Positions 25,287 to 42,440 of a stretch of 64,000 nucleotides of DNA are shown here, in pieces. Under the pieces are notes generated by a model. The model did not search any database and was not told the DNA's origin. It worked only from the letters and a program-made list of their open reading frames with translations. The position numbers and the translations under genes were made by a program. Source of the DNA: Bacillota bacterium (GTDB taxonomy: Bacteria; Bacillota; Clostridia; Acetivibrionales; DUMC01); assembly GCA_013314855.1 (NCBI GenBank), contig JABUEW010000001.1, positions 24,377 through 88,376 of the forward strand, in the 5' to 3' direction. Position 1 is the first letter of the stretch. The number at the start of each line of letters is the position of its first letter.

Positions 25287-25295
25287 TAATAACTG

Positions 25296-27620
25296 TCAAT
25301 TTATAATTCCATAATCAGAGTTTAACATTTTTTTATATTGTCCGGGAGTCATATTTTCATTCTTCTTAAACTGCCTTCTGAAGGTAAGGTCATTTGAAAA
25401 TCCTGATTTTTCTGCTGCATCTTTAATACTTTCACCTCTTAATAAAAGCTGCTTGGAATACTCAACTCTGATTTTATTTATATACTCTAGAAATGTATAC
25501 CCTGAATGATTCTTCATATATCTGCATAAATATTGTGGAGTTACATTTAAGCTCCTGGCAACTTCACTCAGAGTTAGCTGAGTATTTGTAAAATTTTCCT
25601 GTATAAAGTTAACAATTCTATTCCATAACTCAAGTCTTTTACTCTCGTGATGCATTCTTATATGTTTACAAACTTCCGAAAAAACATTTTCAATACTTAC
25701 TAGCATTTTGTTTATACTGTTAATTTCTTTAAAATCTGAAAATTTGTAACCAATATTGTATTCGACATTCATATTTTTTAAAGCTCTATGAGCTAGACAT
25801 AAAAAACTATACATCATATGCTGAATCACAAAAACATTAATATTATCAGGATTAATACTGTCATTAACTGCCTTCTCACACAATTCATAGGCTTTTCTAT
25901 CTTCTCCCTGCATTAATAATTCCAAAATTTCCCGTCCTGTGTATTCAGGTATATAATAAAAAATCTTATTTTGTTTATCTTCCTTAGAATAGATAAGTAT
26001 AGGACACTTTTGGAAATCTATAGTGTTTTCAATAATTTCCTGGCAGTCCTGAAATGACAAATAAATATTCTGTAAATTAGATACTACACGACCTATGGCA
26101 ATAGCCTGTACATTATTATTCATAAGATTAATATGATTTTCTTCTATACATTGTATTACCTCTTTCTTTATATCATTACCTTTTGTATCCTTTAAATTTA
26201 CTACCATTACTGTTTTTAATAAGTCAATATCAATAAAAAACACCGCCATATCATTTCCTAAGAATTTACTCTTTAATTGATTTTTAATTATTTCATTCAT
26301 AGGGAGTTTCTCATATTTCAAAAACATAACACAAATAAAGAAATCATATGGGAAGAAAAGTCCGACAGTATCCATATCATTTTGCAAATTATCAATCGAG
26401 AGAATATTTCCGGTGATAATTTTTCTTAAAACATAATTCATCAAAATCGGCCTTACTTTTTGAATTTCTGTTTTTAAATATAAATTATTTGATACTATCA
26501 TTTTAATATTTTGCTTCAAGAAATGATATTCATCTGAGGATGACATATTCAATGATTCTAAAGTTTTACTATCAAAAAAAATATTCATGATGTCATATAC
26601 TGGTTCAGAATTCATTTTAGCTAAAATAAACGAAATGATTAAACCAAATAACAGAATTATTGTAAGAATCATTATAGTTTGTATCATAATCGGTTTTGTA
26701 TTATACATTATAGTAAATCTGGGTATTATGGAAATATATTGTAAATCATAAAACTTAGATTTTTGGGAAAACAAAATATATTTTTCATTATTGATTATGA
26801 TTTCATTTTCATTTAATATTCTTCCCTCCAAAATTCCATGAATCAATTCTAATTTTTTTTCATCATTTAATCCATTACTACTAGAAAAAATACAATTCCC
26901 ATGAGAGTCTACCAACATATTTATGCCAAATTCCATAATTGTTCCTTTATGTAATATTGATTCTAAACTATCCCTGTTAATAAGAAAAAGGCACCTGCTG
27001 TTACTATTGTTCTGAAAAGTGGGCATTTTTTTGCTGTAAATTACCAAATTTGTGATAATACCCATAAAGTTCACCTTTGAAACCGGTACAAAATAAGACT
27101 CTTCCTCTACATTCATAATCATATTTTCTCTGCTTTTATCTAAGAAAAACAAAACATCCTTAAAAAAATCTTCTTGACTGCATCCACCCCAAGTCGAGAA
27201 ATAAAGATCATCCTCTATAAATTGGATAACAATGTGTTGAACTAAATCATTGTTTGCAGCAGCAACCCCTAATTGATTTTTACAATTATTTATTGTAGTA
27301 ATATTATTTTTTAACTTTTTAACACCTAGATTTCCAGTTTTAATAATTTTACTTATTTCTCCAACTTGAGAAAACTGAACAACAGTATTTATAATATCCT
27401 TCATTTTATTATCAAGTTCTTTTACACTTTCCTTCATGATATTGCTGTATTGTGTCTTGTTTTGTGTGACAATAGAATTTAGCAAATTGTTATAATTTAA
27501 AATGCCAATAACAGTTAAAGGTATACTGAACAACAAAGAGTAGGATATTAGAGTTTTCAAAAACAACGGTTTTTTGAATTGAAGAATTAAGCTTTTAACT
27601 CTATATATGACTTTATTCAT
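25296..27620 (-). CDS. Membrane-anchored AraC-family one-component sensor/regulator
   Basis: 774 aa. Two TM segments (LISYSLLFSIPLTVIGILNY and IMILTIILLFGLIISFILA) flank an extracytoplasmic domain. The C-terminal HTH_18 region reads LSEVARSLNVTPQYLCRYMKNHSGYTFLEYINKIRVEYSKQLL...FSNDLTFRRQFKK. Confidence 0.85.
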   Translation of the reverse strand: MNKVIYRVKSLILQFKKPLFLKTLISYSLLFSIPLTVIGILNYNNLLNSIVTQNKTQYSNIMKESVKELDNKMKDIINTVVQFSQVGEISKIIKTGNLGVKKLKNNITTINNCKNQLGVAAANNDLVQHIVIQFIEDDLYFSTWGGCSQEDFFKDVLFFLDKSRENMIMNVEEESYFVPVSKVNFMGIITNLVIYSKKMPTFQNNSNSRCLFLINRDSLESILHKGTIMEFGINMLVDSHGNCIFSSSNGLNDEKKLELIHGILEGRILNENEIIINNEKYILFSQKSKFYDLQYISIIPRFTIMYNTKPIMIQTIMILTIILLFGLIISFILAKMNSEPVYDIMNIFFDSKTLESLNMSSSDEYHFLKQNIKMIVSNNLYLKTEIQKVRPILMNYVLRKIITGNILSIDNLQNDMDTVGLFFPYDFFICVMFLKYEKLPMNEIIKNQLKSKFLGNDMAVFFIDIDLLKTVMVVNLKDTKGNDIKKEVIQCIEENHINLMNNNVQAIAIGRVVSNLQNIYLSFQDCQEIIENTIDFQKCPILIYSKEDKQNKIFYYIPEYTGREILELLMQGEDRKAYELCEKAVNDSINPDNINVFVIQHMMYSFLCLAHRALKNMNVEYNIGYKFSDFKEINSINKMLVSIENVFSEVCKHIRMHHESKRLELWNRIVNFIQENFTNTQLTLSEVARSLNVTPQYLCRYMKNHSGYTFLEYINKIRVEYSKQLLLRGESIKDAAEKSGFSNDLTFRRQFKKNENMTPGQYKKMLNSDYGIIN

Positions 27621-27732: not shown

Positions 27733-29034
27733 CCCCCTGATTTTTTATAGAATTATAATGTAAGGGCAAGAATGACTATTACACCTGCCTAAGGTTGCTG
27801 TTGCCTTTTTTAAGCTTATATATATTCAGATTGTCAAGGAGCATTCCGTTGGAGCAGCTTTTTAGGGTGTCATAGTAGTTCTCATTTTCTTTTTTCTTGT
27901 TTTTCTTTGCTTCTTTCCAAGTGTATTTTTTATACCCTTATCTCTAATGCCTTTGCTGTTCCTGAAATCGTAGCCATATAAAATTCCCTTGGGCTCATGT
28001 AGAATATCGATGAGTGTATCCTGCGTATGTTATATCTGTCTATAAATTCAATCACTTCTCTATATCCCTCTTCGTACTTTTCAAATTTCCACTTTCCAAG
28101 ACATTCATCCTCAAGTATTCTATGAAAAGCTTCTATATGAGCATTTTTATCCGGTGTTTTACAGGGTATCCTCACATGTTCTATATTCAGTTCCTCACAC
28201 CTGCTCTCAAAAGCATGGCTTATAAACTGTAGCCCGTTATCTGTCCGTATTACCGGCTTATCCTCCTTTTCATACAAGTTCCTGCGCATTAATGCCCTCT
28301 ACAACATTATGACAGCATCACTGCCTTCACAGCTTAAGCCTATATGGTAATCAACCACCATCCTGTCATACACATCGATTATTGATAATATGTAGAAAAA
28401 CCTGTCTTCTCCGGCTATCTAACCGTACTTGATGTCCGCTTCCCATAATTGGTTCACAGCTGTTACTATTCGATTCTTCGCAAGCTTTCCTGGATACTTC
28501 GGTTTTATTTCCCTCTGAGGTTTTAGTATTCCAAGTTCTTTACATAACCGGTAACCTTTTTCTTGTTTATTATAAGTTTATATTCCTTTCTTAAAGCTAT
28601 GGTAAGCTTATAACATCCATAGCTTAAGCCGTCTCCTTCACTTAATTCCATGATCCATTCTTTTATTTGTATGTCGCATACTATTCTTCCATCAATGGTA
28701 TATGAATAGCCAGGTATAGGCCTCCCTCCATTTTGTTCCTTTTCCTCACCTCTCTTGGTTCTTTTATTAGGCTTGAATCCTTCTTCAATCCCTTTTTTGT
28801 CATTTTTTTCATTGGCTCTTGTTTTTTTGTACCCGCACCCATCTTGCTACTATTTACTGGCTAACATTATACTTCCTTCCGACAACACTGCAATCCTCAG
28901 TTTCAGTGGCTTCCTTAATGACTTGCTTCTTAAATTCCTCTGAATGTTTCCGTACTCTCATATTTTTTTCCCCTTTGCTTACTTTTTTATTATATAAGCT
29001 TTGGGTCTAATTGTCCAAATAGATTAGGGGGCTT
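27733..29034 (-). mobile_element. Decayed IS3-family element (orfA/orfB with stops and frameshifts); ends approximate
   Basis: orfA starts near 28955 as MRVRKHSEEFKKQVIKEATETEDCSVVGRKYNVSQ*. The orfB pieces read ...NQLWEADIKYG*IAGEDRFFYILSIIDVYDRMVVDYHIG...* and there is an rve-core fragment at 27930..28289 (DNGLQFISHAFESRCEELNIEHVRIPCKTPDKNAHIEAFH). Candidate imperfect terminal repeats are CCCCCCTGATTTTTT (27732) and the reverse complement of AGATTAGGGGG (29031). Confidence 0.6.
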
Positions 29035-29312: not shown

Positions 29313-30155
29313 TCACTCTCTTTGAACTAACATCATCCTTTTTCTATGACAGTTACATTCTCCTACACCTTCGCACAAAAGAAAAGCTGGGTCTTTTTTT
29401 AATATAGGTACCAACAATTCTATTAATTTATTTCCATTTACTAATTTGCATAAGGCATTGCCAATATAACCTTCACGTTGAATTTCTTTTATTCCTTTGA
29501 TGTTTTCAATCCTTCCAAAAGCTTTTGAACAGCCGGAAAGTTTTTTGCTTAACGGAATTCTTTCAATACTTCCATCATCTCTTTCCACCAGGTAATAGTC
29601 TCCATAAGTGTCTTTGTTTTTTATATGAAGAAAAGGTAAATCCGCCAGACATTCGGCAACATGTATAGTTGAATTTGCTTCATGTCCGACTCCTATTAGA
29701 AGAACTAAACCCCCATTTTTTGCAAGTTTATGAATAGGTGTATCCTCGCCAAAAGGCGGAGTATACTCATTATGATTTTCTACATACTTTTCAGCTTCTT
29801 TTCCTATGGTAGCCACCGAATGGGTAGGGTGGTCACTTCTGTATGCATCACTTCTTCTCCAGAAAACATCACTTACAAGTCCGGTTTGAGACGAGGTCTT
29901 CTTTTTGTTGTATGGCAATGTTCCTTTATTACCTTCATAACTGTAAGTAAAAGTTGGCATCATTATAAGTCCTTCTTCTCCAACTACATTCAATAGCGCA
30001 TTAATCAAGGTATCAGCTCCACCTTCAACATAACCTATAGATTTTAATGAACAATGAAATATTAATTTATCACCTTTTTTAACACCCATTTTTAAAAGGT
30101 CAGTTATTATCCGTTTTAATCCGATATTATTAACCGTACTGTCTGACTTATCCAA
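29313..30155 (-). CDS. AAC(3)-family aminoglycoside/aminosugar N-acetyltransferase (Antibiotic_NAT)
   Basis: 280 aa, TTG start. LKMGVKKGDKLIFHCSLKSIGYVEGGADTLINALLNVVGEEGLIMMPTFTYS matches the family N-terminal signature. Confidence 0.8.
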   Translation of the reverse strand: MDKSDSTVNNIGLKRIITDLLKMGVKKGDKLIFHCSLKSIGYVEGGADTLINALLNVVGEEGLIMMPTFTYSYEGNKGTLPYNKKKTSSQTGLVSDVFWRRSDAYRSDHPTHSVATIGKEAEKYVENHNEYTPPFGEDTPIHKLAKNGGLVLLIGVGHEANSTIHVAECLADLPFLHIKNKDTYGDYYLVERDDGSIERIPLSKKLSGCSKAFGRIENIKGIKEIQREGYIGNALCKLVNGNKLIELLVPILKKDPAFLLCEGVGECNCHRKRMMLVQRE

Positions 30156-30275
30156 CTTATTATTCCCCCACCAGTAACAATTTGCAGCCCTTTTGTTTTT
30201 TAATTCTATTAAAATTATAGCATTTTCATTACTTTATGTAAATACTTCATATTCCTTCACACAAATAGAGTATAC

Positions 30276-31211
30276 CTACAGTAAAATCCTAAAATTCCTG
30301 CTTATGCCTTCACCCTCTATCCATTTGTTACCCCATTCCTCAATATAGGATTCTTTTCTCAACTCTTCACAGCCGATTGAAATTGTATTTGCGGATAATA
30401 TTCCATCATTATAATCAAATACTCTAAGTTCAAAAGGATACTCCCTTAATGAACCAGTCTGGCAATAGGCTATCCCATTCTCAAAATACAAATCATTTAT
30501 ATGCCAATGGCCCGATAGCACAAGTTTAACATTATCGTATTTACTTATAAGCTTCTTTAATTCATTACCATTTGATAGTCCCAAAAGAAAACCGTCGAGT
30601 TTTTCGCCTTTCTTTTGTCCAATCTTCCCATCAGGGAATCTGGCAACAGGGTATAATGGTTTCCATGCCAGAGGTACATGCCCCACCATAACTACCTTAC
30701 AGTCCCTGGCAACTTCAAGTTCAGATTCTATCCATTCCATCTCTTCATCAGAAACACACATTGCCACTATTTTACCAGAGTCGTATGCTTCTTTATCAAG
30801 GTACGGACTTATAGATCCATCCAATGATTTCCAATAGCACATATCCATGAAAATGAAATACAAATCTCCAAATCTTTTTGAATAATAGCATTTACCATCA
30901 GGAAGTTTATAAATATCACAAAGGGACTGGCGTACTCCCGGATACCATGTATCATGATTCCCCGGTACTGCATACCATGGACACGGGAAACTATTAAATA
31001 TTTCACAGGCAAACCTGAAATTTTCCATATTACATTTATGTGTTATATCCCCACATATAACAACAAAATCTGGCGATATCTCTGAAATAGTTTTTACAAG
31101 GCACCTGGCGATTTCAGCACTTTTGGTTAAAAGCACCCTGTTCCAAAATACACTGTCTTTAGCATTTTCAAGCATAATAAAATGAGTATCACTTAAAACT
31201 GCAAATTTCAT
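30276..31211 (-). CDS. Calcineurin-like metallophosphoesterase
   Basis: 311 aa with FAVLSDTHF, VVICGDITH, VPGNHD and LSGHWH. Confidence 0.8.
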   Translation of the reverse strand: MKFAVLSDTHFIMLENAKDSVFWNRVLLTKSAEIARCLVKTISEISPDFVVICGDITHKCNMENFRFACEIFNSFPCPWYAVPGNHDTWYPGVRQSLCDIYKLPDGKCYYSKRFGDLYFIFMDMCYWKSLDGSISPYLDKEAYDSGKIVAMCVSDEEMEWIESELEVARDCKVVMVGHVPLAWKPLYPVARFPDGKIGQKKGEKLDGFLLGLSNGNELKKLISKYDNVKLVLSGHWHINDLYFENGIAYCQTGSLREYPFELRVFDYNDGILSANTISIGCEELRKESYIEEWGNKWIEGEGISRNFRILL

Positions 31212-31271
31212 TTCTTAGCCTCACCTTGCACCATTTTAAGTAAATTACTTAAGTAAATTACCATTTTATTT

Positions 31272-33029
31272 CTATTTTATTTTATCAATATTTATTTTTG
31301 CTTCTTCCTCAAAACATTCTACCTTTTTATACTCTCTTATCACATACTCATCTTCATCTCTGAAAACTGAAATGCTCAAAGGGACATCCGTTTTACCTTT
31401 TAGTGTACATTGTACACCGGCTTCATCTATATTTAAACTATTTATCCACACACCATCTTTCCCTTTTAAGTAACGTCCTATATCGTCATGTCCCGCATAT
31501 ATTTTCTCATATTTGCCTGTCAATTGTCCGGCTAATTTTAGAATATTGTCCCATTCGTCCATTGTCATGTTTTCAAACTTTTGTTCATGGGTCACTATTT
31601 CGGCATAAAAACCTGCCCTCAAACCATGAAGTATTTGATTAGCAGCACTTCGTCCAGCTTTATCTACATCGGTATTCAAACTTTCCGCAAGGTAAGGAGT
31701 ACAACCAGTGAGAAAATCCTCCCTGAATCTGCTTAACATGGCTGCAAAAGCAAAAAAGTCATTATCATCGGGAAGATAGTCATAGTAACAGGTTTGCAGG
31801 TTGTATGGCCAAAACCCGTCACTATAACACATATCCGCCTTGGGGAGTCCAGTCTGCAGGGCGGGGCAGAAAAACAAGCGACCTCTTTTTTTCAGGTATG
31901 GCAGAGAATTAACTCCACAATCTCCAAGGTGGAATCTGATAGTTTTACCTGGAGTTGCTCCAACCCTTCTCCACCAACTATCTTCAAATTCAAAAACCCT
32001 TTCCAATTCTTCACTGCTCATTTCACCCTTGCCGTAATGGTAGTAAAGGAGGTTATAATAATCAAGGGCATGAGAATTATAGCTTACTCTTTTATCAAGT
32101 AGCCCTTCTTTTATTTTGGGGAACAACCTTTCCGGGACATTCCTCAAGAATAATGAAGGCATGGGGACATATCCGTGTTTTACCGCAATATCAACATAGG
32201 CAAAGTCATGTCTTCCGCTGCAGTCGTCAAAAGACATAGTAACAAAAGGTGGAATCATATTAGTTACAAAAGGTTTTTTTACAGCCCATATTATGGAACG
32301 CCAGAACAGGTCCCCAAGACCTCCTGTATGGCCGTATATCTCATTCCGCCAGATGCGTGGATTTATTGTAAACTGTACTGCTTTACCTTTGCCTCTGCGT
32401 GTTGCAAACACAACAGGATAATTGCCTGGCTCATATGCGCTCCAGGGAGCAACATGACGTATGTATATAAGTTGCTCTTTACCTAATAATCCTTCAGCCA
32501 AAGGTTTTACATCCAGACCCCATTTTTCTACGGCAATAGCAGTTACCATTTTATTAAATTTATGATACTCTCCATCTATTTGCATTTCTGTAATATAATG
32601 TTTATTGTTCTTTATTCTTACTACGTCTGTAGCATAAGGATGGGGATTTATTTTATCAAATCCAAATATCTTAAGGTATTCACTATTGTAATGGCGGATG
32701 TCATTGTCAAAATTTACAAGGCCTGTCCCTTCTTCTACAGTTTCAGCTATCAACTTCATTTCTTCATCTGTAAGAAAATTTCCCAGACGGCTCTGGGCCA
32801 GGATTATTCCGGCACAGCTTCTCAAAATTTGGGGCGTCAGCCTTTGTTTTGCAAGGTCCAAAACCGTGTAGGGCATACCAAAATGCTCAAGCGCTGTTAG
32901 TACCGTTTCATCAACGATTGAATAGTCCCAATATGAACCTATGCTGTTAACAACAACCAACAGGCACCTGTTTCCTAAAGAATTATGCCTTTGCCTTTCA
33001 ACTTTTCCAAAATTGTTCTTCAACCTCAT
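31272..33029 (-). CDS. Hypothetical protein: GATase1-like N-terminal region followed by a region carrying FVTMSFDDCSGRHD
   Basis: Start moved to ATG 33029 (MRLKNNFGK...). No confident family assignment. The FDD motif hints at a deacetylase-like barrel. Confidence 0.3.
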   Translation of the reverse strand: MRLKNNFGKVERQRHNSLGNRCLLVVVNSIGSYWDYSIVDETVLTALEHFGMPYTVLDLAKQRLTPQILRSCAGIILAQSRLGNFLTDEEMKLIAETVEEGTGLVNFDNDIRHYNSEYLKIFGFDKINPHPYATDVVRIKNNKHYITEMQIDGEYHKFNKMVTAIAVEKWGLDVKPLAEGLLGKEQLIYIRHVAPWSAYEPGNYPVVFATRRGKGKAVQFTINPRIWRNEIYGHTGGLGDLFWRSIIWAVKKPFVTNMIPPFVTMSFDDCSGRHDFAYVDIAVKHGYVPMPSLFLRNVPERLFPKIKEGLLDKRVSYNSHALDYYNLLYYHYGKGEMSSEELERVFEFEDSWWRRVGATPGKTIRFHLGDCGVNSLPYLKKRGRLFFCPALQTGLPKADMCYSDGFWPYNLQTCYYDYLPDDNDFFAFAAMLSRFREDFLTGCTPYLAESLNTDVDKAGRSAANQILHGLRAGFYAEIVTHEQKFENMTMDEWDNILKLAGQLTGKYEKIYAGHDDIGRYLKGKDGVWINSLNIDEAGVQCTLKGKTDVPLSISVFRDEDEYVIREYKKVECFEEEAKINIDKIK

Positions 33030-33117
33030 CACCCCTATTACTATTAATACTCTATACAATCTATACAATTTGCTTTTTATCAGTTATATTACCGGTAATG
33101 AACCATTCTCTAATTAG

Positions 33118-33873
33118 TTATGATATCAATTTCTCAGCATTCTTATAAAACAACCTTTCTTTTGTTTCATCATCCATAGTAACATAATTGAACATATCCA
33201 GCCTGTTTTTCAGCGGATACATGCTTTTACCAAAGCCAAAATCCGATCCGAACATTATTTTGTCATTGCTTACCCGGTCTATTATTTTTTGAAGCTGAAA
33301 TATCGATGGACCACAAAGCGATAAATATATATTTTTATATTTGTTTGCAGCGTGTATGGCATTATCATAAGTTTCTATCAGGCCTGAATGGCCAAGTATA
33401 ATAGTTGCTTCAGGGTATCTGAAGGCCAGGTTGGCCACCTGCAGTGTTGATGCGTAAGGGGGACTGCCGTCGTGAAATAGTATAGGTAGGTTATGTTTTA
33501 TGCATTCTTCAGTAATAAGTGATATCGATGGGTGCGTAATAGGACATCCTTGAAGCCAAGTATGAAGTTTTAAGCCTTTAAAGCCGTAAATTTCCACGCA
33601 CCTTTTTATTTCGTCCAGGGTTTTGCAACCATAATTAGGGTTTACGGTAAAAAAGCCTATAAACCTTTTTTCATTCCTTTTGCAAAAGTCATGTAAGGCC
33701 TGGTTAGCCTCTCTATACTCCCCAATTCCATAAAGGCCACTGGTGGGACTTACCCATATCTTTTCTACTTTACTTTCATCCATTAATTCAAGGGTTTCTT
33801 CTACTGTAAGGCCTGGCAGATCTCCATTCCTGAATTTTCCATCTGTCATGTGTACGTGAGTATCTATAATCAT
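33118..33873 (-). CDS. Amidohydro_2-type metal-dependent hydrolase
   Basis: 251 aa with MIIDTHVHM, ILGHSG and IMFGSDFGF. Confidence 0.75.
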   Translation of the reverse strand: MIIDTHVHMTDGKFRNGDLPGLTVEETLELMDESKVEKIWVSPTSGLYGIGEYREANQALHDFCKRNEKRFIGFFTVNPNYGCKTLDEIKRCVEIYGFKGLKLHTWLQGCPITHPSISLITEECIKHNLPILFHDGSPPYASTLQVANLAFRYPEATIILGHSGLIETYDNAIHAANKYKNIYLSLCGPSIFQLQKIIDRVSNDKIMFGSDFGFGKSMYPLKNRLDMFNYVTMDDETKERLFYKNAEKLIS

Positions 33874-33890
33874 ATTCCATCACCCGCCTA

Positions 33891-34619
33891 TCAGTTCCTT
33901 AATATTTTTATAATATTTTTATAGAAAATCTTCTCCTGTACTTGCTCCGGTAGCTTAAGTTCCAGAATCTTCTTAATTTCATGAGTCTGATGGGATCTGG
34001 GCATATTTGAACCGAATATTACCCGGTCTTCGCCGGCAGCTTGAATTAGCCCCAGTATTGCACTGGATAAATTATGTGAGGTATCAAGGTAAATATTTTC
34101 CCGGGATTTAGCTGCATAGGCTGTGTCTGTCCAGAAATCGGTGTTCCCTGAATGGCCCATAATAAAATTAACTTTGGGGAAATCATCTGCCAGCTCAGCA
34201 AGCTGGAAAGGTTCGGAAGTAACCATGGTGCCTGTATGAAAATATACAGGCACCATATATTCTTCAACTACCTTTATTAAAGGTTTAACAAGGTCACTAT
34301 TCAGTATGAACCCCTGTAATTTGGGGTTTAGTTTCAACCCGCGCAATCCTTTATCAAGATATTTTTTTAATATTTCAACAGCCTTATCAAGATACCACGG
34401 GTTAACTGAAGCAAAACCAATAAATCTGTCCGGATACTTATTAACTAGATCCAGTATATACCTATTTCCTTCTTCATTATATACAGCTATATACTGCTCT
34501 ATAGGTACAATAACGCACTTTTCGACCTCATTTTGGTCCATCAGCTCAATCAGTTTTTCAGGGTCAAGCGCTTTTTCAAAGCCTTTACCTACATGTACAT
34601 GGGCATCTATTTTTTTCAT
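33891..34619 (-). CDS. Amidohydro_2-type metal-dependent hydrolase
   Basis: Start moved to ATG 34619 (MKKIDAHVHVG). Has FIMGHSG and VIFGSNMP. Confidence 0.75.
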   Translation of the reverse strand: MKKIDAHVHVGKGFEKALDPEKLIELMDQNEVEKCVIVPIEQYIAVYNEEGNRYILDLVNKYPDRFIGFASVNPWYLDKAVEILKKYLDKGLRGLKLNPKLQGFILNSDLVKPLIKVVEEYMVPVYFHTGTMVTSEPFQLAELADDFPKVNFIMGHSGNTDFWTDTAYAAKSRENIYLDTSHNLSSAILGLIQAAGEDRVIFGSNMPRSHQTHEIKKILELKLPEQVQEKIFYKNIIKILRN

Positions 34620-34655
34620 ATTTTTTATTCCCCGCATATAAATATTTTACTTAAA

Positions 34656-34710
34656 CATATTGCCTTAATCGACATGTTTCGACATATTTCGGGTGGTGCC
34701 AGGCACCTTA
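34656..34710 (-). repeat. 55-nt repeat, copy 1, overlapping the last 15 codons and stop of 34665..35852
   Basis: About 84% identical to 36816..36870. Contains the palindrome GGTGCCAGGCACC and the direct repeat TCGACATGTTTCGACAT. Confidence 0.8.
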
Positions 34711-35852
34711 ATTTCCCACAGATATCCACTGCGGTAAGGGTTATCATTCTCACAGGCATAGAGTACTCCATCCTTTGTCATAACAACATGATGGACCTGG
34801 TAACATGCCTCTCCATCCTGGTCTATTACATCACCTATAAGCTCATACTTGGTCTTCATGAAATCAAATTTCAGCACTTCACATTTTCCGTCTCTTCCGG
34901 TAACTCCATAGGCACAACCATCAGGCCCCACTGCCATTGATGTAAGCCTGCTTCTCCTATCCTTTATTGGTGTAAAAAGGTACATGGATTTCCCTGTCTC
35001 AGGGTCTATCCTATGAATAGAACCATTTTTCCCGCTGGCATACATATACCCGTCACCAAGGTTAAAAAGGGCTTCCATTTTTTCGTAACCATATAACCCA
35101 TCTGCCCTGGTTAAACCGGTATCTAAAAATTCAATTTTTTCCCCCCCTGCCGGAACTCTAAAAAGCCTGTTTGCGTCTTCACCCGCATAAGGCTGCCATG
35201 CTCTTGTAAGGCACCAGGTTCCCCAAAGGTTCCCTTTATCGTCAAGTTCAATATTTTCTCCCTGGGCCATGCCTGATATTCCAGTTCCAACCAGCCCGAG
35301 ATTTTTAACCTCACCTGTTTCCATATTATAAGTTATCAAGTATTCCGGCGGAAAACACTGGCAGTACATGAGATCTCTTTCCTGATCAAGGACCGCAGCT
35401 TGTATATATACGTGGGGCATTGGGGTAGCAATTCTTTCAATGTCACCCGTCTTTGGGTTATATTTTATAATAGCACCCCCCGGAGCTTCCCATTGTTTAT
35501 CAACACAATGAAGAAGTGCAATTGCCCCATAAATGCAGCCATCTTTTTCTCTTTTAAAAAGGGCACGGTGGAACTTGGCATCATATGGTTTTGCTACCCT
35601 GCTGTACCCAAGATCCACAAATTTTTCTTCATTACGGTCATACGCCATAAAGATTCCATTTTCATCAAATGTTGTTATCCCTAAATAAACCCGGTTATCA
35701 TCTTCGTTATAATAGGCACAATCCATGCTTATCCAATCCGATCTCCATTCAGGATTGTTTTTAAAGTCATCATATGTCCATCGGCTTAGTACATTGGAAA
35801 ACCAGCTTTCCCCAAAATGTCTATCCTTTAGTTTCAAAGATTTTATTTGCAT
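34665..35852 (-). CDS. Hypothetical protein, probable beta-propeller
   Basis: 395 aa. The sequence shows repetitive strand-like periodicity (DGxxYG/DGVLYA-type blades). No catalytic motif recognised. Confidence 0.3.
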   Translation of the reverse strand: MQIKSLKLKDRHFGESWFSNVLSRWTYDDFKNNPEWRSDWISMDCAYYNEDDNRVYLGITTFDENGIFMAYDRNEEKFVDLGYSRVAKPYDAKFHRALFKREKDGCIYGAIALLHCVDKQWEAPGGAIIKYNPKTGDIERIATPMPHVYIQAAVLDQERDLMYCQCFPPEYLITYNMETGEVKNLGLVGTGISGMAQGENIELDDKGNLWGTWCLTRAWQPYAGEDANRLFRVPAGGEKIEFLDTGLTRADGLYGYEKMEALFNLGDGYMYASGKNGSIHRIDPETGKSMYLFTPIKDRRSRLTSMAVGPDGCAYGVTGRDGKCEVLKFDFMKTKYELIGDVIDQDGEACYQVHHVVMTKDGVLYACENDNPYRSGYLWEIKVPGTTRNMSKHVD

Positions 35853-35873
35853 AAATAACCTCTCCTTTAATTT

Positions 35874-36743
35874 TTATTTTTTTGCCTTATAATGCCAGGC
35901 ATACTTATCATCCTTATCGGCAAAGAACCTATAAAACTCTTTTTTCACCGGCCAATTTCTGATTTTATCCAAATTATTTATGCACCATTCTATTGATGCT
36001 GGTTCACCTTTATCATCAGTGCCTATGAAGCCCTGTTCTAATTCATCAGGATCTGCCAATCTCCATTTTCCATCAACAAACACTTCTGCTACACGATGGC
36101 AATTTAATTGTACTAATCTACCCCTCCATCCTGCTGCCTGTGCCAGTTGCACAACAACACAGGCTTGATGGCCACAACGGCCTTCATGAAGCAGTAAAAG
36201 TTCGAGGGCATCTGTCACCATTCCTGCCAACCCCCAATCCCCGTCCATAGTAACCTGCAGAGGATTACACCAAACTCCCAGGTACTTGCCAAAGGCAACG
36301 GCTTCATTATATGCTTTCACAGCCCAGGGTTTTTCCAAGTCTTCAGGATACGGCTCACTCTGTGTAGCTAAAGAATCCCCTTTAAGTCCTCTGAAGACCA
36401 GGTGAGCATCTTTTTCCATAGGTTGCTCGGCTGGAGGATGAATCATCATCCTTTGTACAAAAAAAACAAGGTTCTTAAAACGCTCAATATCATTTGTAGT
36501 GTCTTTCCATATATGGTTAATTATATCCTTTAATACCTTATCTCTATCAACACCCTCCAATTGTTTCCTGACGAAATCAAGCTTTTCAGTGCGATACCAA
36601 AGTATTGCTTTAAGACTCGTATCATACATGTCTTTTCCTTTACCCATACCTTCGGGCAAAAACCAGGGTTTGATATTACTCCCTGGTGGTGTCCATTCAG
36701 GACTATAAACATAATCAAAATCAAAGGTAAACTTTTTTCCCAC
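35874..36743 (-). CDS. Transglutaminase-core-like Cys-His-Asp protein, divergent paralog III
   Basis: 289 aa, GTG start with AAAGGAGG RBS. Has GRCGHQACVVVQLAQAAGWRGRLV (Cys), NCHRVAEVF (His) and WRLADPD (Asp). Confidence 0.5.
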   Translation of the reverse strand: MGKKFTFDFDYVYSPEWTPPGSNIKPWFLPEGMGKGKDMYDTSLKAILWYRTEKLDFVRKQLEGVDRDKVLKDIINHIWKDTTNDIERFKNLVFFVQRMMIHPPAEQPMEKDAHLVFRGLKGDSLATQSEPYPEDLEKPWAVKAYNEAVAFGKYLGVWCNPLQVTMDGDWGLAGMVTDALELLLLHEGRCGHQACVVVQLAQAAGWRGRLVQLNCHRVAEVFVDGKWRLADPDELEQGFIGTDDKGEPASIEWCINNLDKIRNWPVKKEFYRFFADKDDKYAWHYKAKK

Positions 36744-36814
36744 TAAAGTAACCTCCTTTATTTTATATTGATTTCATTAAAAGCACACACAAGTATGGAA
36801 AAACTCAGTACAAG

Positions 36815-38797
36815 TCATATTGCTGCATTCGACATGCTTCGACATAATTCGGGTGGTGCCAGGTACATTATCCCGTATACATCCAATTCCGGTATTTCAA
36901 TACGCAAATAGTCTCCATTATCTTCTGCTAGAAGCTTTATATCCTCTTTACCGGGACTCATCCATATAATATCACTCACCTTTTTCTTGGGTTTTATGTT
37001 TACTAAAATTCCTCTCCTGGTAACCGGGTGAATAAAAGGAAATACATTAACATACCTGTTCACAATATGCACAGCCTCACCATCTTCTAAAATAGTATGG
37101 TTAAGAGAAATCAAAGGCATATTCTTTTCCATATAAACTGAAGGGTTGACAAGAGCTTTCTCCACCGCTAAAGCATACTCACAATCTGGTTTTCTATACC
37201 CTGAATGTATACCAATAGGTTTCCTTTTAACAAAATAATCTTTTTCTACATTGTCATTAAAATGTTTCCATCCATTACCTCCCCACTTTTTATTATAGGG
37301 TTCAAAATTTTCATCAAATTTACAGCATATACCTGAACTTATAATTTTTCCACCAGAATTTAGATATTCTTGTATGGCATCAAACCAAACTCTAGGCATT
37401 ATTTCAATGTTTGGTACAATAATTAGCTTATATTTTTCCAACCTTGTGGAATGTTCTTCCTTCTCTACAATTAATATATCATAGGGCAAATTCATATCTT
37501 CCAAAAGGGCAGCGCTCATTTTTGAAGGACTTATGGCTTGTGATGACCAGAGATCAGACCTCCAGGAGTAAAGAATGGCAATATCATTGGCGTCCTTCTC
37601 TACAGCATAAATATCACGGGCATGTTTAACATAAAAGTTTCTCATAATGGCCTGTGCTTCCTGAAGCTTTTCATCCTCACGTATATGAAAATCCCAGAAC
37701 TCTGCTTGACCACCCATTGCCCTGCCTTCAGCGCTTAGTACCTGGACCATGCCGGCTACAGGAGCCGATTCAACTGTGCGGGTAACAATATACATGCAGC
37801 GCTCACCTTCCCCGATAGCAGTACCGAGACGTAAACTAAAAACATTTGAAACAGGAGGAGCAGTATACCCTTCCTCTGAAAACACCATGTCAAAAACTCC
37901 TGACAGGGCTACAGCGCTTTGTTCGGGGATGCCTACATGTCCATTGGATGTAAAAATAATTTTTCTACCTATTTCTTTTTCAAGGCGGCTGCGTATCTCC
38001 CTACAAAATTCCACAGCTTTTTCAATACGCCATTCCAAATATCTCATAAACCTTTTGTTATCAACCCGCACCAGATCTTTAGGTACCTGGTTATATCCAA
38101 TATAATCAAACACTCTCATATCGCCAATTACCGTTTCCTGAATACCCATATCGTCAATAAGTTCACTTCCAAACTTTTCTTTATATGCATCCTGGCAATA
38201 TTTGCAACGACAATGTATAAATGGAGTATTATTATCAAGAAATACCCCATCGGCACCGGTTTTTCCTACTCGTATTATCAAACGTTCTACAAGAAAATCC
38301 CGCCATCCGGGTTTATTTAAACAGGCAAATCTTCGTCCTTCATTATTAAAGGCCCAGGCAAATGGAACCAGTTCAGCAGCCATGGCTTCTATTTCATCCT
38401 TTGAAAATGCTCCTTCATCAAAATTGTTTTCATTCTGATAAACAACTACCGGGATACCAACTGCATGTAATGAATCATTATACTCTTTCTCATTACGTAC
38501 ACTTTCCAAAAGCATTTCATTTCTTGCAGGTCCTTTGAAACCCAGGGTACCCTTTCGCCCATAATTATCCATGGCAGTATGATACAGAAGATTACAGGGA
38601 CGATTTGCAATAGATGGCCCAACAGGCTCTTTTCGTGCTTCATTTATAGTGCTGTTAATATCAAGACTATAGAGCATTGTTCCTCGCCTTAATATTTTCC
38701 TGTAATCATCCATAGTTGGGAAATTCCCATCATGCCATAAATCAGGAGATAATCTTAACCCATTATCAAATATTATATCTTTCGTGTCTAAAGGCAC
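36815..38797 (-). CDS. GH42-like protein, divergent paralog IV
   Basis: 660 aa, GTG start with GGAGGG RBS. Has FIHCRCKYCQDAYKEKFG (CxCxxC) and LIIVPNIEIMPRVWFDAIQEYLNSGGKIISSG (GATase1-like). Confidence 0.45.
   Translation of the reverse strand: MPLDTKDIIFDNGLRLSPDLWHDGNFPTMDDYRKILRRGTMLYSLDINSTINEARKEPVGPSIANRPCNLLYHTAMDNYGRKGTLGFKGPARNEMLLESVRNEKEYNDSLHAVGIPVVVYQNENNFDEGAFSKDEIEAMAAELVPFAWAFNNEGRRFACLNKPGWRDFLVERLIIRVGKTGADGVFLDNNTPFIHCRCKYCQDAYKEKFGSELIDDMGIQETVIGDMRVFDYIGYNQVPKDLVRVDNKRFMRYLEWRIEKAVEFCREIRSRLEKEIGRKIIFTSNGHVGIPEQSAVALSGVFDMVFSEEGYTAPPVSNVFSLRLGTAIGEGERCMYIVTRTVESAPVAGMVQVLSAEGRAMGGQAEFWDFHIREDEKLQEAQAIMRNFYVKHARDIYAVEKDANDIAILYSWRSDLWSSQAISPSKMSAALLEDMNLPYDILIVEKEEHSTRLEKYKLIIVPNIEIMPRVWFDAIQEYLNSGGKIISSGICCKFDENFEPYNKKWGGNGWKHFNDNVEKDYFVKRKPIGIHSGYRKPDCEYALAVEKALVNPSVYMEKNMPLISLNHTILEDGEAVHIVNRYVNVFPFIHPVTRRGILVNIKPKKKVSDIIWMSPGKEDIKLLAEDNGDYLRIEIPELDVYGIMYLAPPELCRSMSNAAI
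36816..36870 (-). repeat. 55-nt repeat, copy 2, overlapping the last 18 codons of 36815..38797
   Basis: See copy 1. The shared nucleotides are read in a different frame here (LAPPELCRSMSNAAI* vs PGTTRNMSKHVD*). Confidence 0.8.
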
Positions 38798-38887
38798 GCG
38801 TCAACCCTCCATTTCATCAGACTTACTATTTTAGTGAAATTCCATTTACGAAACCCTCATATTAAAAATATAATTTACTGTTTTACA

Positions 38888-39928
38888 CTATTGGAATATC
38901 TCTTCACAATTCACCTCTTTAATGGTGTAGTCAGGGTATCCGGAAAAATAGATAAACCTTTTTTCTACAGGCAGAAACATAACACCATAATCAGTATATA
39001 ATCCATCCTCCCCCTGCTGTCTTATAGCTCCCTTAGAGCTTCTGTCATTGAGAAACATCATCATACCTTCCTCAGTTTTTGGTATAGAGCTAATCAAGGA
39101 TAGAGCATTCTTATACCTTTTTATTCCATTTGACAATATAGGTTCCTTTTGGGCTGGATTTTTAGCAGCCAGTTCCGAATCCAGTATGTGATTTGTATGA
39201 ATTAGAAAGCCTCTATCTATCGGCATTATTTCTGCCATACCATTTCCTGTTTTTTCTATTAACGCCATCTCACCCTTTGCATCACCCAAAATAAGGCTGA
39301 AACCATAATAGCTCAAATTGATACTCTTTAAGTATGACACTGCTTCTTTAACTGTTTTACATCGTGGAAGTATTGTATGAAGGGCATCAAGAGACATAAA
39401 CCCATCTTCCCCCGTTTCAACCCCAGGTATACCGGTCATGCCCATCGCCAGGCCGCACTCATTCATTCCCGCAGTAGTCCATATGCTGCCTGCAAAATGG
39501 AAATGTATATGTTTATATCCCCTGTCAGGGTGTGTAATCTCTAAAATATTTACTCCTAGCTCTTCTTTGTGGATATCATCGGTCTTGCCTAATACAGGCC
39601 TGTTTTCCCGGGTATAAAATCCAATGGAGGTGCAATTTTGAAATTTAGAAAGAAGGCGCCAGGAAAGTATAGCCTTAAAATAGTCATTTTCCGGGATGTT
39701 AAGCCCTGAAGCTATTCCACAGCATTCTTCATACCCTTCCGGATAGACTCTTTGGAAAGCATTTTTACAGCTATTTAGTATATCTTCCAGCCTTTTTACT
39801 TCATATGCCTCTTCAAGTTCCTGGATTTTTGGGGAAATCCATTTCATAGCAATTGCTTTACAAGATTCTCCTTGCTGTCTTCCACGCTCAAAAGGGGAGC
39901 CTTTAGTTTTAATTTGAAGCAATGTCAT
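38888..39928 (-). CDS. Peptidase C45 / acyl-CoA:6-APA acyltransferase-like Ntn hydrolase
   Basis: 346 aa. Has an N-terminal KGSPFERGRQQGE and a candidate nucleophile in FQNCTSIGFY. Confidence 0.6.
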   Translation of the reverse strand: MTLLQIKTKGSPFERGRQQGESCKAIAMKWISPKIQELEEAYEVKRLEDILNSCKNAFQRVYPEGYEECCGIASGLNIPENDYFKAILSWRLLSKFQNCTSIGFYTRENRPVLGKTDDIHKEELGVNILEITHPDRGYKHIHFHFAGSIWTTAGMNECGLAMGMTGIPGVETGEDGFMSLDALHTILPRCKTVKEAVSYLKSINLSYYGFSLILGDAKGEMALIEKTGNGMAEIMPIDRGFLIHTNHILDSELAAKNPAQKEPILSNGIKRYKNALSLISSIPKTEEGMMMFLNDRSSKGAIRQQGEDGLYTDYGVMFLPVEKRFIYFSGYPDYTIKEVNCEEIFQ

Positions 39929-40014
39929 ACACTCCTTTTTGAAATTTTCTTTTTTAATACTCCTTAAAAATTATAACATACATATACCAATTTGTAAACT
40001 ATGGTTTTGCAAAC

Positions 40015-40259
40015 GGGCGCATTTTCAAATTTTGAAGAAAATGCTGGAAGTAACATTGCGGAAAGTCTTATAGAGCCTGTTAATCCGACGAGGGATAAGC
40101 AAATCAACTGTATGAGCAAAATAATTACATTAAAATATTATTAAATTCTATTCAAATTATTTTGCGAGTTTGATTTGCCCCGAAGTGAATTTACAGGCTC
40201 TTAAGACTTGGAGCATTTAGTTACTGGAAGCATTTTCTTCATAAAAATAAAATGCACTC
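40015..40259. mobile_element. MITE-like palindromic element, copy A
   Basis: About 243 bp. The two arms are roughly 75% self-complementary. The termini are GGGCGCATTTT... and ...AAAATGCACTC. The element is flanked by a perfect 9-bp direct repeat TTTGCAAAC (40006..40014 and 40260..40268). Confidence 0.8.
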
Positions 40260-40287
40260 TTTGCAAACTTAACAACGCCTGCACTAA

Positions 40288-41520
40288 TCAGCACCTTATT
40301 CTAATAAAGTGTGCCCTGGACTTAACAAAGGGATCCATATATTCTCCACATCTCTCTGTAAAAGAACCAAGTATCAGTCCATCTCTTGATACTTCTCTGC
40401 AACCTCCTGTAGCATAAATAGAATATGGATCATCAACAAGCTCCTCACTTAACGCATAATCCTCCCAGGTCAATCCGTTATCATAACTGACAATACAGCC
40501 AATTCTTTTTCTCTGTTTTGCCACATAGTATAAAGCCTCCTTACCCGGTCGCCTGTCTACGGCAAAAAATCCGTCAAATCCTGCAAGTCTGACTTTATTG
40601 CCACCAAGTTCATGTGCCAATATTTCATGGTCTTTCTTCCCTCTTGCAATATCATACCTTATATAATGCTGTTTCCCATTATAAAAATCATCTTTTGGTA
40701 GTTTAAAATCCGGATGTGGACTCGCCCTGTACATGAAATGCAACTTGCCATTAACTGCAATAAAGTTGGAAAGCCAGGTATTTAAATCAAATTCTTCATC
40801 CAAAGTGATTCTATCACCACCGCCATCTGTATCACTTAAAACCGGAAGCCTTATTTCCGTGCCATCCATGCGCTTCCATGTATAGCCTCCGTCTTCGGAT
40901 TTCATATAGTATATGCTTAAATAATGGAATGTCTTATGCATATTTGTGGTCCAGGCTACGTGCAATACACCGTTTTCATCCATAACCATATGCGGATACT
41001 CAAAGGAAGCTGTTTTACCAATCTCAACTATTTTTGCAGAGTATTTAATATTCCCCTCCACATCGATAGCATGGAAATCGCCGTTGTTAGGTATATAATA
41101 TAACATCCTTCTTTTTTTATCGTAAGCCATGGCAAATTTCCCACCTGCAGTATTCGGAATGGTTATGCAAAAAGGGTTTTTATACTTTTCTGATGCTTTA
41201 AAAATCATAAAACACGAGTTCCATTTCACAAAGTCGGGATATACAAGATACAGGTTATTTTCTTCATCTGTTTCTAATGGAGCAGGGTTTGTGGGATCTA
41301 TACTATCATAAATAACATGGAAAGTGTCTCCCTGGTCAGTGCTTCTTAGAAGTCTCCAATTCTGTGCTGTATACTTTTCATTTCTTGACCTTATATAAGT
41401 AAGAAATATACCGTTTTCATTACTAACAATTTTTTGATTATGGCTCTGAAATGTAGCAAAAGCTGTAGCTTCCTGGTCGAAGCATATTACATCAATTTTT
41501 TTCAATTCACATTTAGACAT
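40288..41520 (-). CDS. BNR/Asp-box repeat protein (sialidase-superfamily beta-propeller)
   Basis: 410 aa with Asp-boxes STDQGDTF, SEDGGYTW and SYDNGLTW. Confidence 0.7.
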   Translation of the reverse strand: MSKCELKKIDVICFDQEATAFATFQSHNQKIVSNENGIFLTYIRSRNEKYTAQNWRLLRSTDQGDTFHVIYDSIDPTNPAPLETDEENNLYLVYPDFVKWNSCFMIFKASEKYKNPFCITIPNTAGGKFAMAYDKKRRMLYYIPNNGDFHAIDVEGNIKYSAKIVEIGKTASFEYPHMVMDENGVLHVAWTTNMHKTFHYLSIYYMKSEDGGYTWKRMDGTEIRLPVLSDTDGGGDRITLDEEFDLNTWLSNFIAVNGKLHFMYRASPHPDFKLPKDDFYNGKQHYIRYDIARGKKDHEILAHELGGNKVRLAGFDGFFAVDRRPGKEALYYVAKQRKRIGCIVSYDNGLTWEDYALSEELVDDPYSIYATGGCREVSRDGLILGSFTERCGEYMDPFVKSRAHFIRIRC

Positions 41521-41624
41521 AAATTATATCCCCTTTTTATTTCAACATCTATCTTACGCTTCATATTATATATTTAAACAGTTCATTTATATATAAAATT
41601 TCTTAACAGGGTTAACTAATTTCC

Positions 41625-42440
41625 CTATATCTCTTGACTTTTTATAGCTTTAATAAAATCATCAACATCATAAACAAAGCCAAAACCTACGGCTATTGTC
41701 CATAAGGCAAGTTCTTTGCCTAAACCTAACCTTGCAGTTTCCTTATTTTCTACCGCAGTGACCGCCTCACGTATAGTTGAGCACATTATTCCATGTCGAT
41801 ACAGGTGCATAAACCCACCGCTCGAAAACTGGATACACCAGTTTATATTGTAGCCTATATAGATTAGATGATTGATGCCATAATGTTTACACAGCTTAAA
41901 AAGCTGTTTTTCATCCAGAACAACTTCTTCATCGCCTTGGGGTTTTTCTTCTTCAGGAAATGCCGATATTTCAGCCATAACCTTATATGATTCAAGGTTG
42001 TGTTTACCGGGGAAGCCATAATCCCTTTTAAATTCCCTTAAACGCTGCAATACCGGATCTTGTTCCACCTGCTCAAAACCGGTGCTTTCGCCTACCAAAT
42101 CTAAAACCTTTTTGTACCCTGCATAATCTTTACAGTACGAACTTCCCGCAGCAACATGGAAGAGTTTCATCCCCGATTCTCTTATTGCTTGTAATAACCC
42201 GGGCATTATATTTTTTCCAACATTATACGCCCTCGGTATATATTCGCATGCCCTGAACACTCCTGGAACCTGTTCCATTGTGCCGTAATTTATTGCATGC
42301 ATAAGCACGACTGCAGTTTTATCCAGGTTTAGCTCCAGGGTCTCTTTTCTCCAGCCGCCATAACCTTCACCAGGTACTTCAAGGGAATAGTCTGCATCAA
42401 ACTGCTGATAATAATATGTTGGAAGTTTTATAATTTTCAT
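41625..42440 (-). CDS. Isochorismatase-like cysteine hydrolase (tentative)
   Basis: 271 aa. KTAVVLMHAINYG and LIYIGYNINWCIQFSSGG resemble the isochorismatase-family strand and Cys motifs. Confidence 0.35.
   Translation of the reverse strand: MKIIKLPTYYYQQFDADYSLEVPGEGYGGWRKETLELNLDKTAVVLMHAINYGTMEQVPGVFRACEYIPRAYNVGKNIMPGLLQAIRESGMKLFHVAAGSSYCKDYAGYKKVLDLVGESTGFEQVEQDPVLQRLREFKRDYGFPGKHNLESYKVMAEISAFPEEEKPQGDEEVVLDEKQLFKLCKHYGINHLIYIGYNINWCIQFSSGGFMHLYRHGIMCSTIREAVTAVENKETARLGLGKELALWTIAVGFGFVYDVDDFIKAIKSQEI

Follow-up and report, generated by a model that had tools for sequence, protein, structure and literature searches.

Two unrelated genes of one Clostridia operon probably end in inserted copies of a short dispersed DNA repeat

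A stretch of 64,000 nt from a Bacillota bacterium of the class Clostridia (GenBank assembly GCA_013314855.1, contig JABUEW010000001.1, positions 24,377 to 88,376, here called the window at its full length) contains an operon in which two genes of unrelated products, a propeller-like protein and a protein with a beta-galactosidase trimerisation domain (GH42M-like), terminate in almost the same 55 nt of DNA. This raises the question of how one sequence came to form the end of two different proteins, and of what it does there. The likeness had first been pointed out in a reading made from the sequence alone, which saw an internal operator or promoter, an RNA processing site or a recombination joint as its possible cause. 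The observation itself holds, as a repeat search of the window returned the two stretches with 47 of 55 bases in common (85% identity), and the open reading frames (ORFs) entering them stop at different offsets, at TAA 34667-34665 in copy 1 and at TGA 36817-36815 in copy 2. What escaped the sequence-only reading is that the element belongs to a dispersed-repeat family of wide occurrence, copies of which entered both genes at their final codons. That both copies are dispersed repeats similar to repetitive extragenic palindromic (REP) elements, inserted at gene ends, is in our view very probable.

The two copies and their parts are listed in Table 1. All genes around them are on the minus strand, and the likeness between the two sites is lost within a few bases on either side. 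A pattern of the 26-nt core matched only these two sites in 64 kb, with 0.00 matches expected from shuffled sequences, and a search with either half of the element, allowing up to three mismatches, gave no further credible copy in the window. A 13-bp palindrome and a direct repeat with a 10-nt period had been described in the element, and both are real. The palindrome is perfect only in copy 1 (GGTGCCTGGCACC, 34707-34695), its counterpart in copy 2 being TGTACCTGGCACC, and the direct repeat reads TGTCGAA-ACA-TGTCGAT in the first copy and TGTCGAA-GCA-TGTCGAA in the second, the third heptamer of copy 1 having arisen when 10 nt of the tail unit were duplicated in tandem. Downstream, the next start codons (34619 and 36743) follow at 36 and 72 nt from the near ends and 91 and 127 nt from the far ends of the two copies.

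The propeller-like ORF (34665-35852) has the C-terminus ...EIKVPGTTRNMSKHVD (in a longer stretch, ...WEIKVPGTTRNMSKHVD), in which the last 13 residues, VPGTTRNMSKHVD, are translated repeat. The GH42M-like ORF (36815-38797) ends in ...GIMYLAPPELCRSMSNAAI (longer, ...YGIMYLAPPELCRSMSNAAI), and here the repeat supplies the last ~16 residues, YLAPPELCRSMSNAAI. Both ORFs thus read through to a stop, as they would if the shared DNA encoded a functional C-terminal peptide or tag; yet they cross the repeat in different frames, the resulting peptides are unrelated, and the tails are present in none of 60 propeller and none of 41 GH42M-like orthologs. The propeller protein has hundreds of homologs of ~380-383 amino acids (aa), and the 60 closest orthologs that were inspected all lack the tail; most of them end in ...YLWEIKL and a stop, including those with 89% and 81% identity. 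The GH42M-like orthologs end in YGI(V/L)RLYY and a stop, or in close variants. A peptide function is refuted by this comparison and we give it practically no credence, while the earlier view that conservation lies at the nucleotide and not at the protein level is borne out.

The state before insertion can be read from a contig of a relative (L007), which has the same six genes in the same order (an AAT-family acyltransferase, the GH42M-like protein, a protein of 296 aa, the propeller protein and two amidohydrolases), with proteins 79% identical to those of the window, but carries neither copy of the repeat. Its intergenic spacers are short, 18 nt and 43 nt. In an alignment with L007, L003 and L002, the extra DNA at junction 1 starts right after an AAG (Lys) codon, and the native Leu codon and stop are gone. 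At junction 2, aligned with L007, some 12 native coding nucleotides have given way to ~48 nt; the replacement by copy 2 keeps the reading frame, and the window's TGA at 36817-36815 aligns with the ancestral stop. Because the canonical ends are common to distant orthologs, the repeat-bearing state is the derived one. As judged from these alignments, the tails are not conserved protein features and the DNA is an insertion relative to the orthologs and to L007. Note that the same arrangement is found in an NCBI protein record from a metagenome-assembled genome (MAG) and in the Logan assembly of SRR6186653, two sources that may rest on the same reads.

The comparison with L007 also bears on the proposed recombination joint, or attC-like cassette boundary. 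The two direct copies do flank a 2.1-kb segment of two genes and lie at ORF 3' ends as attC sites do. However, the gene order is identical in L007 without either copy, the family described below is scattered among housekeeping genes in either orientation, no recurring recombinase or integrase is found near its members, and neither window copy contains the GTTRRRY cores of integron attC R''/R' sites. We regard such a joint as extremely unlikely.

The source of the inserted DNA became apparent from searches outside the window. The core of the element, 30 nt of the form GGTGCCTGGCACC-ACCCGAA-nTn-TGTCGAA, defines a family. Its exact 20-mer GGCACCACCCGAANTATGTCG, part of the shared core, was found at 27 loci in 21 assemblies when one genome per species was scanned, with about one chance match expected by our own estimate from the size of the collection. 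The genomes with this 20-mer all belong to the Bacillaceae or Syntrophomonadaceae. They include Oceanobacillus, Virgibacillus, Lederbergia, Cytobacillus, Guptibacillus, Pseudalkalibacillus, Evansella, Neobacillus, Rossellomorea, Anaerobacillus, Natronobacillus, Paucisalibacillus and several Bacillus sp., and four of the matching contigs are from a Syntrophomonadaceae MAG of the class Clostridia. A looser pattern of 19 specified bases matched 32 metagenome contigs, mostly from fermentation or digester samples, of which about three look like chance matches in high-GC coding DNA; a metagenome pattern demanding the duplicated tail gave zero matches. BLAST against plasmids gave three short matches, on plasmids of Clostridium botulinum, Alkalihalophilus and Priestia, the first two in records with no annotation at the match, and there was no match in a phage collection searched by BLAST or in a scan of IMG/VR. 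The further copies that the sequence-only reading had asked for thus exist, in other genomes.

Extraction anchored on the core from all fetched DNA yielded 115 unique copies with one consensus, GGTGCCTGGCACCACCCGAAtTtTGTCGAA, among which 72 are canonical 30-mers. Directly beyond the 30-nt core the information content is close to zero. Some 97 sites, the majority in Bacillaceae, were counted in 439 kb where shuffling predicts 1.25, and the genome loci held 36 sites in 210 kb in addition to the matches used for seeding, up to 8 per 8 kb in Oceanobacillus. In two Oceanobacillus loci, each a stretch of 8 kb, nearly every intergenic gap has a copy, and the adjoining genes are ordinary housekeeping ones (pdxS, a PdxR-type regulator, transporters, a dipeptidase). 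The central palindrome follows the consensus GGTG-MCWGK-CACC, with either half-site form. Only a minority of copies, such as those in L014, L020 and L030, have long hairpin arms (9-13 bp, CGGGTGGTG...CACCACCCG), and a few are full palindromes with both TTCGACA...TGTCGAA arms. Tandem and inverted dimers occur, as do recurrent 10-11-nt tandem duplications of the tail unit. [quoted passage not shown]

Within this family the two copies of the window have a derived form in common, with an additional 10-nt unit and ...GCAATATG, which was seen elsewhere only in Oceanobacillus luteolus (L021). As this form is rare and common to both, the two copies would stem from one 55-nt progenitor within the lineage, and their sequences point to proliferation in this lineage. 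Other variants were noted as well. In the Syntrophomonadaceae MAG JAAYQE01 (L017, L019, L022, L034) a conserved extra 35 nt, ..GCTTTCCAGTTCCTCCCAAAAGGTGCC.., precedes the repeat on its 5' side, and in two of these four copies (L017, L022) a second box follows, TGTCGAA-TAA-TGACGAA or -TAACGAA, which shows a lineage-specific elaboration of the repeat. Tandem duplications of the repeat together with a few flanking bases at L057 1288-1348 (a 39-nt unit present twice), L046 ~1553-1606 and L052 ~649-690 suggest slippage or local amplification.

At the genome loci the copies are intergenic or overlap the ends of ORFs. Counted by context, 15 lie in co-oriented tandem, 12 in anti-oriented tandem, 11 between convergent and 6-9 between divergent genes, so that the family has no orientation preference relative to its flanking genes. 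Where a co-oriented upstream gene is present, the GGTG end of the repeat typically follows its stop codon within ~10 nt. In 12 of the 72 canonical copies the repeat is entered from the GGTG side by an ORF of 100 codons or more; some of these 12 ORFs stop on the TGA of a GGTGAC variant or on a TAG overlapping the first G, and in three copies from other organisms (L009, L025, L055) the ORF reads through the whole core. The gene-end effect seen in the window is thus a recurring property of the family. Some copies sit between a stop codon and a terminator hairpin and must therefore be transcribed. Immediately upstream of repeat copies in Anaerobacillus and Guptibacillus, and not on them, we noted matches to the BsrG type I toxin RNA (L029 5312-5583, plus strand, 52.8 bits; L020 5631-5902, minus strand, 32.4 bits), both below the gathering score of 55.

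Transcription of such copies and the closeness of many others to the stop of a co-oriented upstream gene would suit an element acting in the polycistronic mRNA, be it as a processing site, a stabilising hairpin or a stop-proximal modulator of termination as described for E. coli REPs. A 5-bp hairpin can in fact form in copy 1. Folding of both strands, however, revealed no common fold, with copies no more stable than shuffled sequences (z = -1.52 for copy 1, +0.65 for copy 2), and the palindrome is broken in copy 2. No intrinsic terminator is present on the sense strand at either copy, the only stem, of 5 bp, being on the antisense (plus) strand at 34695-34707. Rfam gave no match to the repeat at E<=1 for the window region and seven repeat-rich loci. 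With neither an orientation bias nor an Rfam family in its favour, the RNA processing site proposed earlier finds no support, and an RNA-level role in general seems very unlikely. The weak Rfam match 'MIR841' at window positions 40038-40235 is almost certainly spurious. A resemblance to a tRNA acceptor minihelix (GGUGCC..GGCACC-A-CC) was considered and rejected; ARAGORN finds no tRNA or tmRNA.

An operator or promoter inside the operon, bound by the local AraC-type or ROK regulator, was another suggestion. The location of the copies 36-72 nt before the next starts, the combination of a palindrome with direct repeats and the presence of just two copies in the window all suit it. Against this, the 30-mer adjoins unrelated genes, among them pdxS and genes for transporters and peptidases, across many genera and in either orientation, and L007 has the same operon without the element. 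A promoter scan gave no sigma-70-like hexamer pair at or just downstream of either window copy, so that the promoter is not upheld; a sigma-54 promoter of the -24/-12 type, suggested by TGGCAC, was rejected as well, the -12 TTGC element being absent at the required spacing when read from the sequence. An operator specific to this operon, or to its AraC or ROK regulator, is very unlikely, while the operator idea as such could survive in another form, that of tandem Spo0A boxes distributed over whole genomes.

This form follows from the heptamer. The binding sequence of the sporulation regulator Spo0A, the 0A box, is TGTCGAA (PMC3485338, PMC2731898). Spo0A of Bacillus and Spo0A of Clostridioides recognise one and the same box, and binding could be predicted from a perfect copy of it (PMC3485338). 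Footprinted Spo0A sites on the DNA of phages phi29 and Nf consist of a perfect box and a second box, perfect or imperfect, in direct orientation and 3 bp apart (PMC2731898). Throughout the family the repeat reads ACCCGAA-nnn-TGTCGAA, an imperfect box placed 3 bp upstream of a perfect one, with T/A flanking TGTCGAA, and the window copies add -nnn-TGTCGA(T/A), one more perfect or one-mismatch box at the same 3-bp spacing. By its letters, the arrangement fits the footprinted phi29 and Nf sites. Three of the five TGTCGAA heptamers in the window fall within the two copies (34684-34678, 36844-36838, 36834-36828), and 49 of the 79 in the genome loci fall in repeats; the heptamer is also present at its fixed consensus position in secondary copies that were found by the core alone, where the tail had not been demanded. 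A contig of a relative of the source organism (L003) encodes a spore-germination permease (Spore_permease), and the host taxa of the repeat matches belong to endospore-forming lineages. Of the other systems that we compared, namely sigma-I and extracytoplasmic function (ECF) sigma factor promoters, the LexA box, CtsR, CodY, PurR, CggR, FapR, CIRCE, parS, Noc, RacA and dif, presumably none fits as well as the 0A box does. The FapR-like (9/13) and CtsR-like (5/7) resemblances of the repeat we take as leads only.

From these observations the following picture can be drawn. Both 55-nt stretches are copies from one subfamily of a short, non-coding dispersed DNA repeat, composed of the 30-nt core, a 10-nt tandem duplication of the TGTCGAA unit and ~13 nt more, in a family that occupies intergenic DNA of endospore-forming Firmicutes, often directly against stop codons. 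Two independent insertions would have taken place in this operon, each within one to five codons of a gene's end and at the cost of its native C-terminal residues, with the native stop lost as well in one of the two genes. Because each ORF reads through the repeat in its frame of entry, one element gives rise to two frames and two unrelated protein ends. The element would act at the level of DNA, with its 13-bp palindrome followed by heptamers phased every 10 bp. It may spread as a selfish REP-like repeat, mobilised in trans or by recombination; the hairpin-plus-tail architecture of some copies would suit an enzyme of the HUH/Y1 type, although most copies have no hairpin, and gene conversion or templated repair is a possible route. 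Survival would be best near stop codons, where an insertion does least harm, above all in tight operons (the 18-43-nt spacers of L007 hold ribosome-binding sites). A dimer site for phosphorylated Spo0A (Spo0A~P) would be provided incidentally or adaptively, and Spo0A~P, when bound there at 36-72 nt upstream of the following cistron, could hinder or tune the read-through of this glycan-utilisation operon as the cells enter stationary phase or sporulation.

Several results weigh against parts of this picture. The window holds only two copies, and the long hairpin is confined to a minority of the family. No target-site duplication (TSD) emerged at any of 25 offset combinations when the 3-5-nt flanks of 71 copies were compared with shuffled pairings; the 5-nt candidates TTAAG and TGTAC at the window copies have inconsistent offsets and were taken as chance. 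An all-against-all BLAST of the ORFs of ~60 loci revealed no linked transposase or other mobilising enzyme, as no protein family occurs beside the copies in more than three of these loci and those that recur represent orthologous neighbourhoods. Selfish repeats are not usually so well conserved that a 30-mer stays nearly identical between Bacilli and Clostridia. The distance from the copies to the downstream start is not fixed, which argues against a standard promoter-operator geometry. Orthologous copies are kept among species of Guptibacillus and Pseudalkalibacillus whose aligned 8 kb have a nucleotide identity of only 71-80%, with the cores better conserved than the flanks, and this persistence suggests slow turnover or constraint and not active mobility. 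At one orthologous site of L013, L028 and L020 (near L028 5470-5508) there are three substitutions, all in the central 5 nt (GCCTG versus GACAG), flanked on each side by ~40 nt that are identical; this looks like a conversion between the two half-forms of the palindrome and not like random drift. As for Spo0A, the match to the 0A box was recognised post hoc, both database patterns themselves demanded the TGTCGA(A) tail, and Spo0A does not explain the conserved palindrome half, which needs another explanation. For these reasons, that the repeat doubles as a functional Spo0A~P dimer site is put forward as a tentative proposal, possible but less likely than not.

Two further explanations divide on the meaning of this conservation. 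The repeat may be purely selfish or neutral, its heptamers being the recognition sequence of its own mobilising enzyme or a mere part of the repeat, with no role for Spo0A and with altered C-termini as its only consequence. Its multiple copies with sharp boundaries, its presence in one relative and absence from another, its tandem and inverted dimers with recurrent 10-nt slippage variants, the variable spacing to downstream genes and the palindrome half that Spo0A leaves unaccounted for all agree with such a nature. On the other hand, a 30-mer near-identical across two Firmicute classes suggests constraint by a conserved host partner, as do the retention of orthologous copies and the better conservation of their cores, and the heptamer, its T/A flanks and the 3-bp spacing coincide with experimentally defined Spo0A sites. 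We consider a purely selfish or neutral repeat a serious contender, somewhat short of an even case. At the other extreme, the 30-mer could be a phylum-wide composite protein-binding module, in which the palindrome serves a dimeric factor and is joined to a phased Spo0A~P dimer site, at hundreds or thousands of intergenic sites of spore-forming Firmicutes. This we find rather doubtful; if true, it would link many operons to Spo0A as the master regulator of sporulation and stationary phase, or would fix the threshold of free Spo0A~P by serving as its sink throughout the genome, and it would be a Gram-positive counterpart of the bacterial interspersed mosaic elements (BIMEs) with a developmental regulator as host partner.

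Table 1. Repeat copies, their parts and the adjoining genes, in window coordinates.
Feature	Position	Strand	Description
Repeat copy 1	34656..34710	-	55 nt; stands where the propeller-like gene natively had its last codon and stop
Copy 1, family core GGTGCCTGGCACCACCCGAAATATGTCGAA	34678..34707	-	30 nt; fits the family consensus
Copy 1, palindrome GGTGCCTGGCACC	34695..34707	strand-neutral	13 bp, perfect
Copy 1, imperfect 0A-like box ACCCGAA	34688..34694	-	3 bp upstream of the perfect box; read from sequence
Copy 1, perfect Spo0A-box heptamer TGTCGAA	34678..34684	-	Published consensus
Copy 1, third box TGTCGAT	34668..34674	-	One mismatch; 3 bp after the perfect box
Copy 1, subfamily-specific extension	34656..34677	-	Duplicated 10-nt unit plus TTAAGGCAATATG; holds the new stop TAA 34667-34665
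Repeat copy 2	36816..36870	-	55 nt; in place of ~12 nt coding for the native C-terminus (..LRLYY) of the GH42M-like gene
Copy 2, core (TGTACCTGGCACCACCCGAATTATGTCGAA)	36838..36867	-	30 nt; left end degenerate
Copy 2, imperfect box ACCCGAA	36848..36854	-	3 bp upstream of the perfect box
Copy 2, perfect TGTCGAA box	36838..36844	-	Heptamer as in copy 1
Copy 2, second perfect TGTCGAA box	36828..36834	-	3 bp after the first
Propeller-like gene	34665..35852	-	395 aa; Pfam matches sub-threshold only
Beta-galactosidase trimerisation domain gene (GH42M-like)	36815..38797	-	660 aa
Downstream amidohydrolase gene	33891..34619	-	Likely start ATG 34619 (comparison with L007), 36 nt after copy 1
Downstream gene of 289 aa	35874..36743	-	Weak transglutaminase-core match; start 36743, 72 nt after copy 2

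Some further features of the window deserve mention. Inside the amidohydrolase gene, at 34225-34256, lies a palindrome (ATGGTGCCTGTATGAAAATATACAGGCACCAT) with a 14-bp stem that encodes ..MVPVYFHTGTM.., and the strings of its arms, GGTGCCTGT and ACAGGCACC, are found again as the two half-forms in the central palindrome of the repeat; this likeness is probably a codon coincidence in a conserved metal-binding motif. For the proteins of the repeat-bearing operon (29313-42440) the closest named relatives are from MAGs of Planctomycetes, Latescibacterota and Armatimonadetes, which hints at a glycan-utilisation cluster transferred laterally into a Firmicute. Between the gene of the AraC-type regulator and this operon, at ~27930-28289 (L001 11754-12113), an ORF of 119 aa with integrase-core matches (rve_3/rve_2) looks like the remnant of an IS3-type transposase. 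A module of two genes is duplicated in tandem (3954-6597 and 8446-11067, 70-75% DNA identity), its ORFs of ~690 aa and ~390 aa occupying 3599-6886 and 8088-11380. A different, non-coding repeat of ~150 nt (19500-19647 and 25136-25341, 77-88% identity) precedes minus-strand genes ending at 19431 and 25060, with a partial third copy at 25273-25341 next to the gene of a 774-aa AraC-type regulator (25296-27620), and may be a shared promoter or operator region. Finally, two intergenic regions (40116-40165 and 54229-54278) share an AT-rich palindromic sequence of 50 nt, GCAAAATAATT...AATTATTTTGC, apparently in opposite orientation.

For the two genes at the centre of this analysis, inserted repeats explain an odd annotation: two unrelated enzymes gained short C-terminal tails from a repeat that landed on their stop codons. 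Such tails should not be mistaken for conserved features of the proteins, and more of them are to be expected from gene callers wherever a repeat abuts a gene. If Spo0A binds the repeats, they would be relevant to the setting of the Spo0A~P threshold and to the spread of sporulation control to new operons.

Compared with known systems, the repeat resembles REP elements, BIMEs and REP doublets forming hairpins (REPINs) in being short (20-40 nt), GC-rich, partly palindromic, extragenic, of high copy number and often located just after stop codons, and likewise in occurring as single, tandem or inverted units without TSD (PMC2817692, PMC3733652, PMC2229807). BIMEs moreover carry sites for host factors, such as IHF sites (PMC2817692, PMC3733652, PMC2229807). 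The REPs and REPINs of Proteobacteria are mobilised by Y1 transposases, the REP-associated tyrosine transposases (RAYTs), and have a GTAG or CGTC tetranucleotide at one end (PMC3733652). In contrast, the 72 canonical copies show no GTAG or CGTC end tag, their ends being GGTG... and ...GTCGAA, most members of the family have only the 13-bp palindrome in place of a real stem-loop, and no counterpart of the RAYT link was found among the ORFs of ~60 loci. Whereas REPs are species-specific, this repeat is nearly identical across two bacterial classes, and its hosts are Firmicutes; the consulted surveys of REPs and MITEs cover no Bacilli or Clostridia beyond bcr1, RUP, BOX and EFAR.

With MITEs (Correia/NEMIS, RUP, BOX, ERIC and bcr1 of the Bacillus cereus group) the repeat shares its non-coding, dispersed nature and its location at or into gene ends, and both can carry protein-binding sites or promoters and create ORF fusions (PMC10969869, PMC2759123). 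MITEs, however, measure 70-300 bp and have terminal inverted repeats of 15-30 bp and TSDs, while the repeat has 30-55 nt, no TSD in 71 copies and no consistent inverted termini; the lack of duplications and inverted termini argues against a MITE of the DDE type. As in the Rickettsia palindromic elements (RPEs) and the intragenic enterobacterial repeat units, an inserted repeat is translated within the host protein (PMC10969869, PMC2759123), but RPEs are ~150 bp long, internal and in frame at high frequency, whereas the insertions described here lie within one to five codons of the gene end, and one supplies a stop of its own. The Spo0A sites of PabrB and phi29 provide the likeness of TGTCGAA with T/A flanks and a second direct box 3 bp away, and phi29 is a precedent for a mobile genome that carries 0A boxes (PMC2731898). 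Unlike known 0A boxes, which are single-copy and belong to defined promoters or origins, those of the repeat are many per genome, fused to a palindrome and at no fixed distance from a promoter. Neither the classical definition of REP/RAYT nor that of MITEs suits the family; in the way it works it comes closest to the REP and BIME elements.

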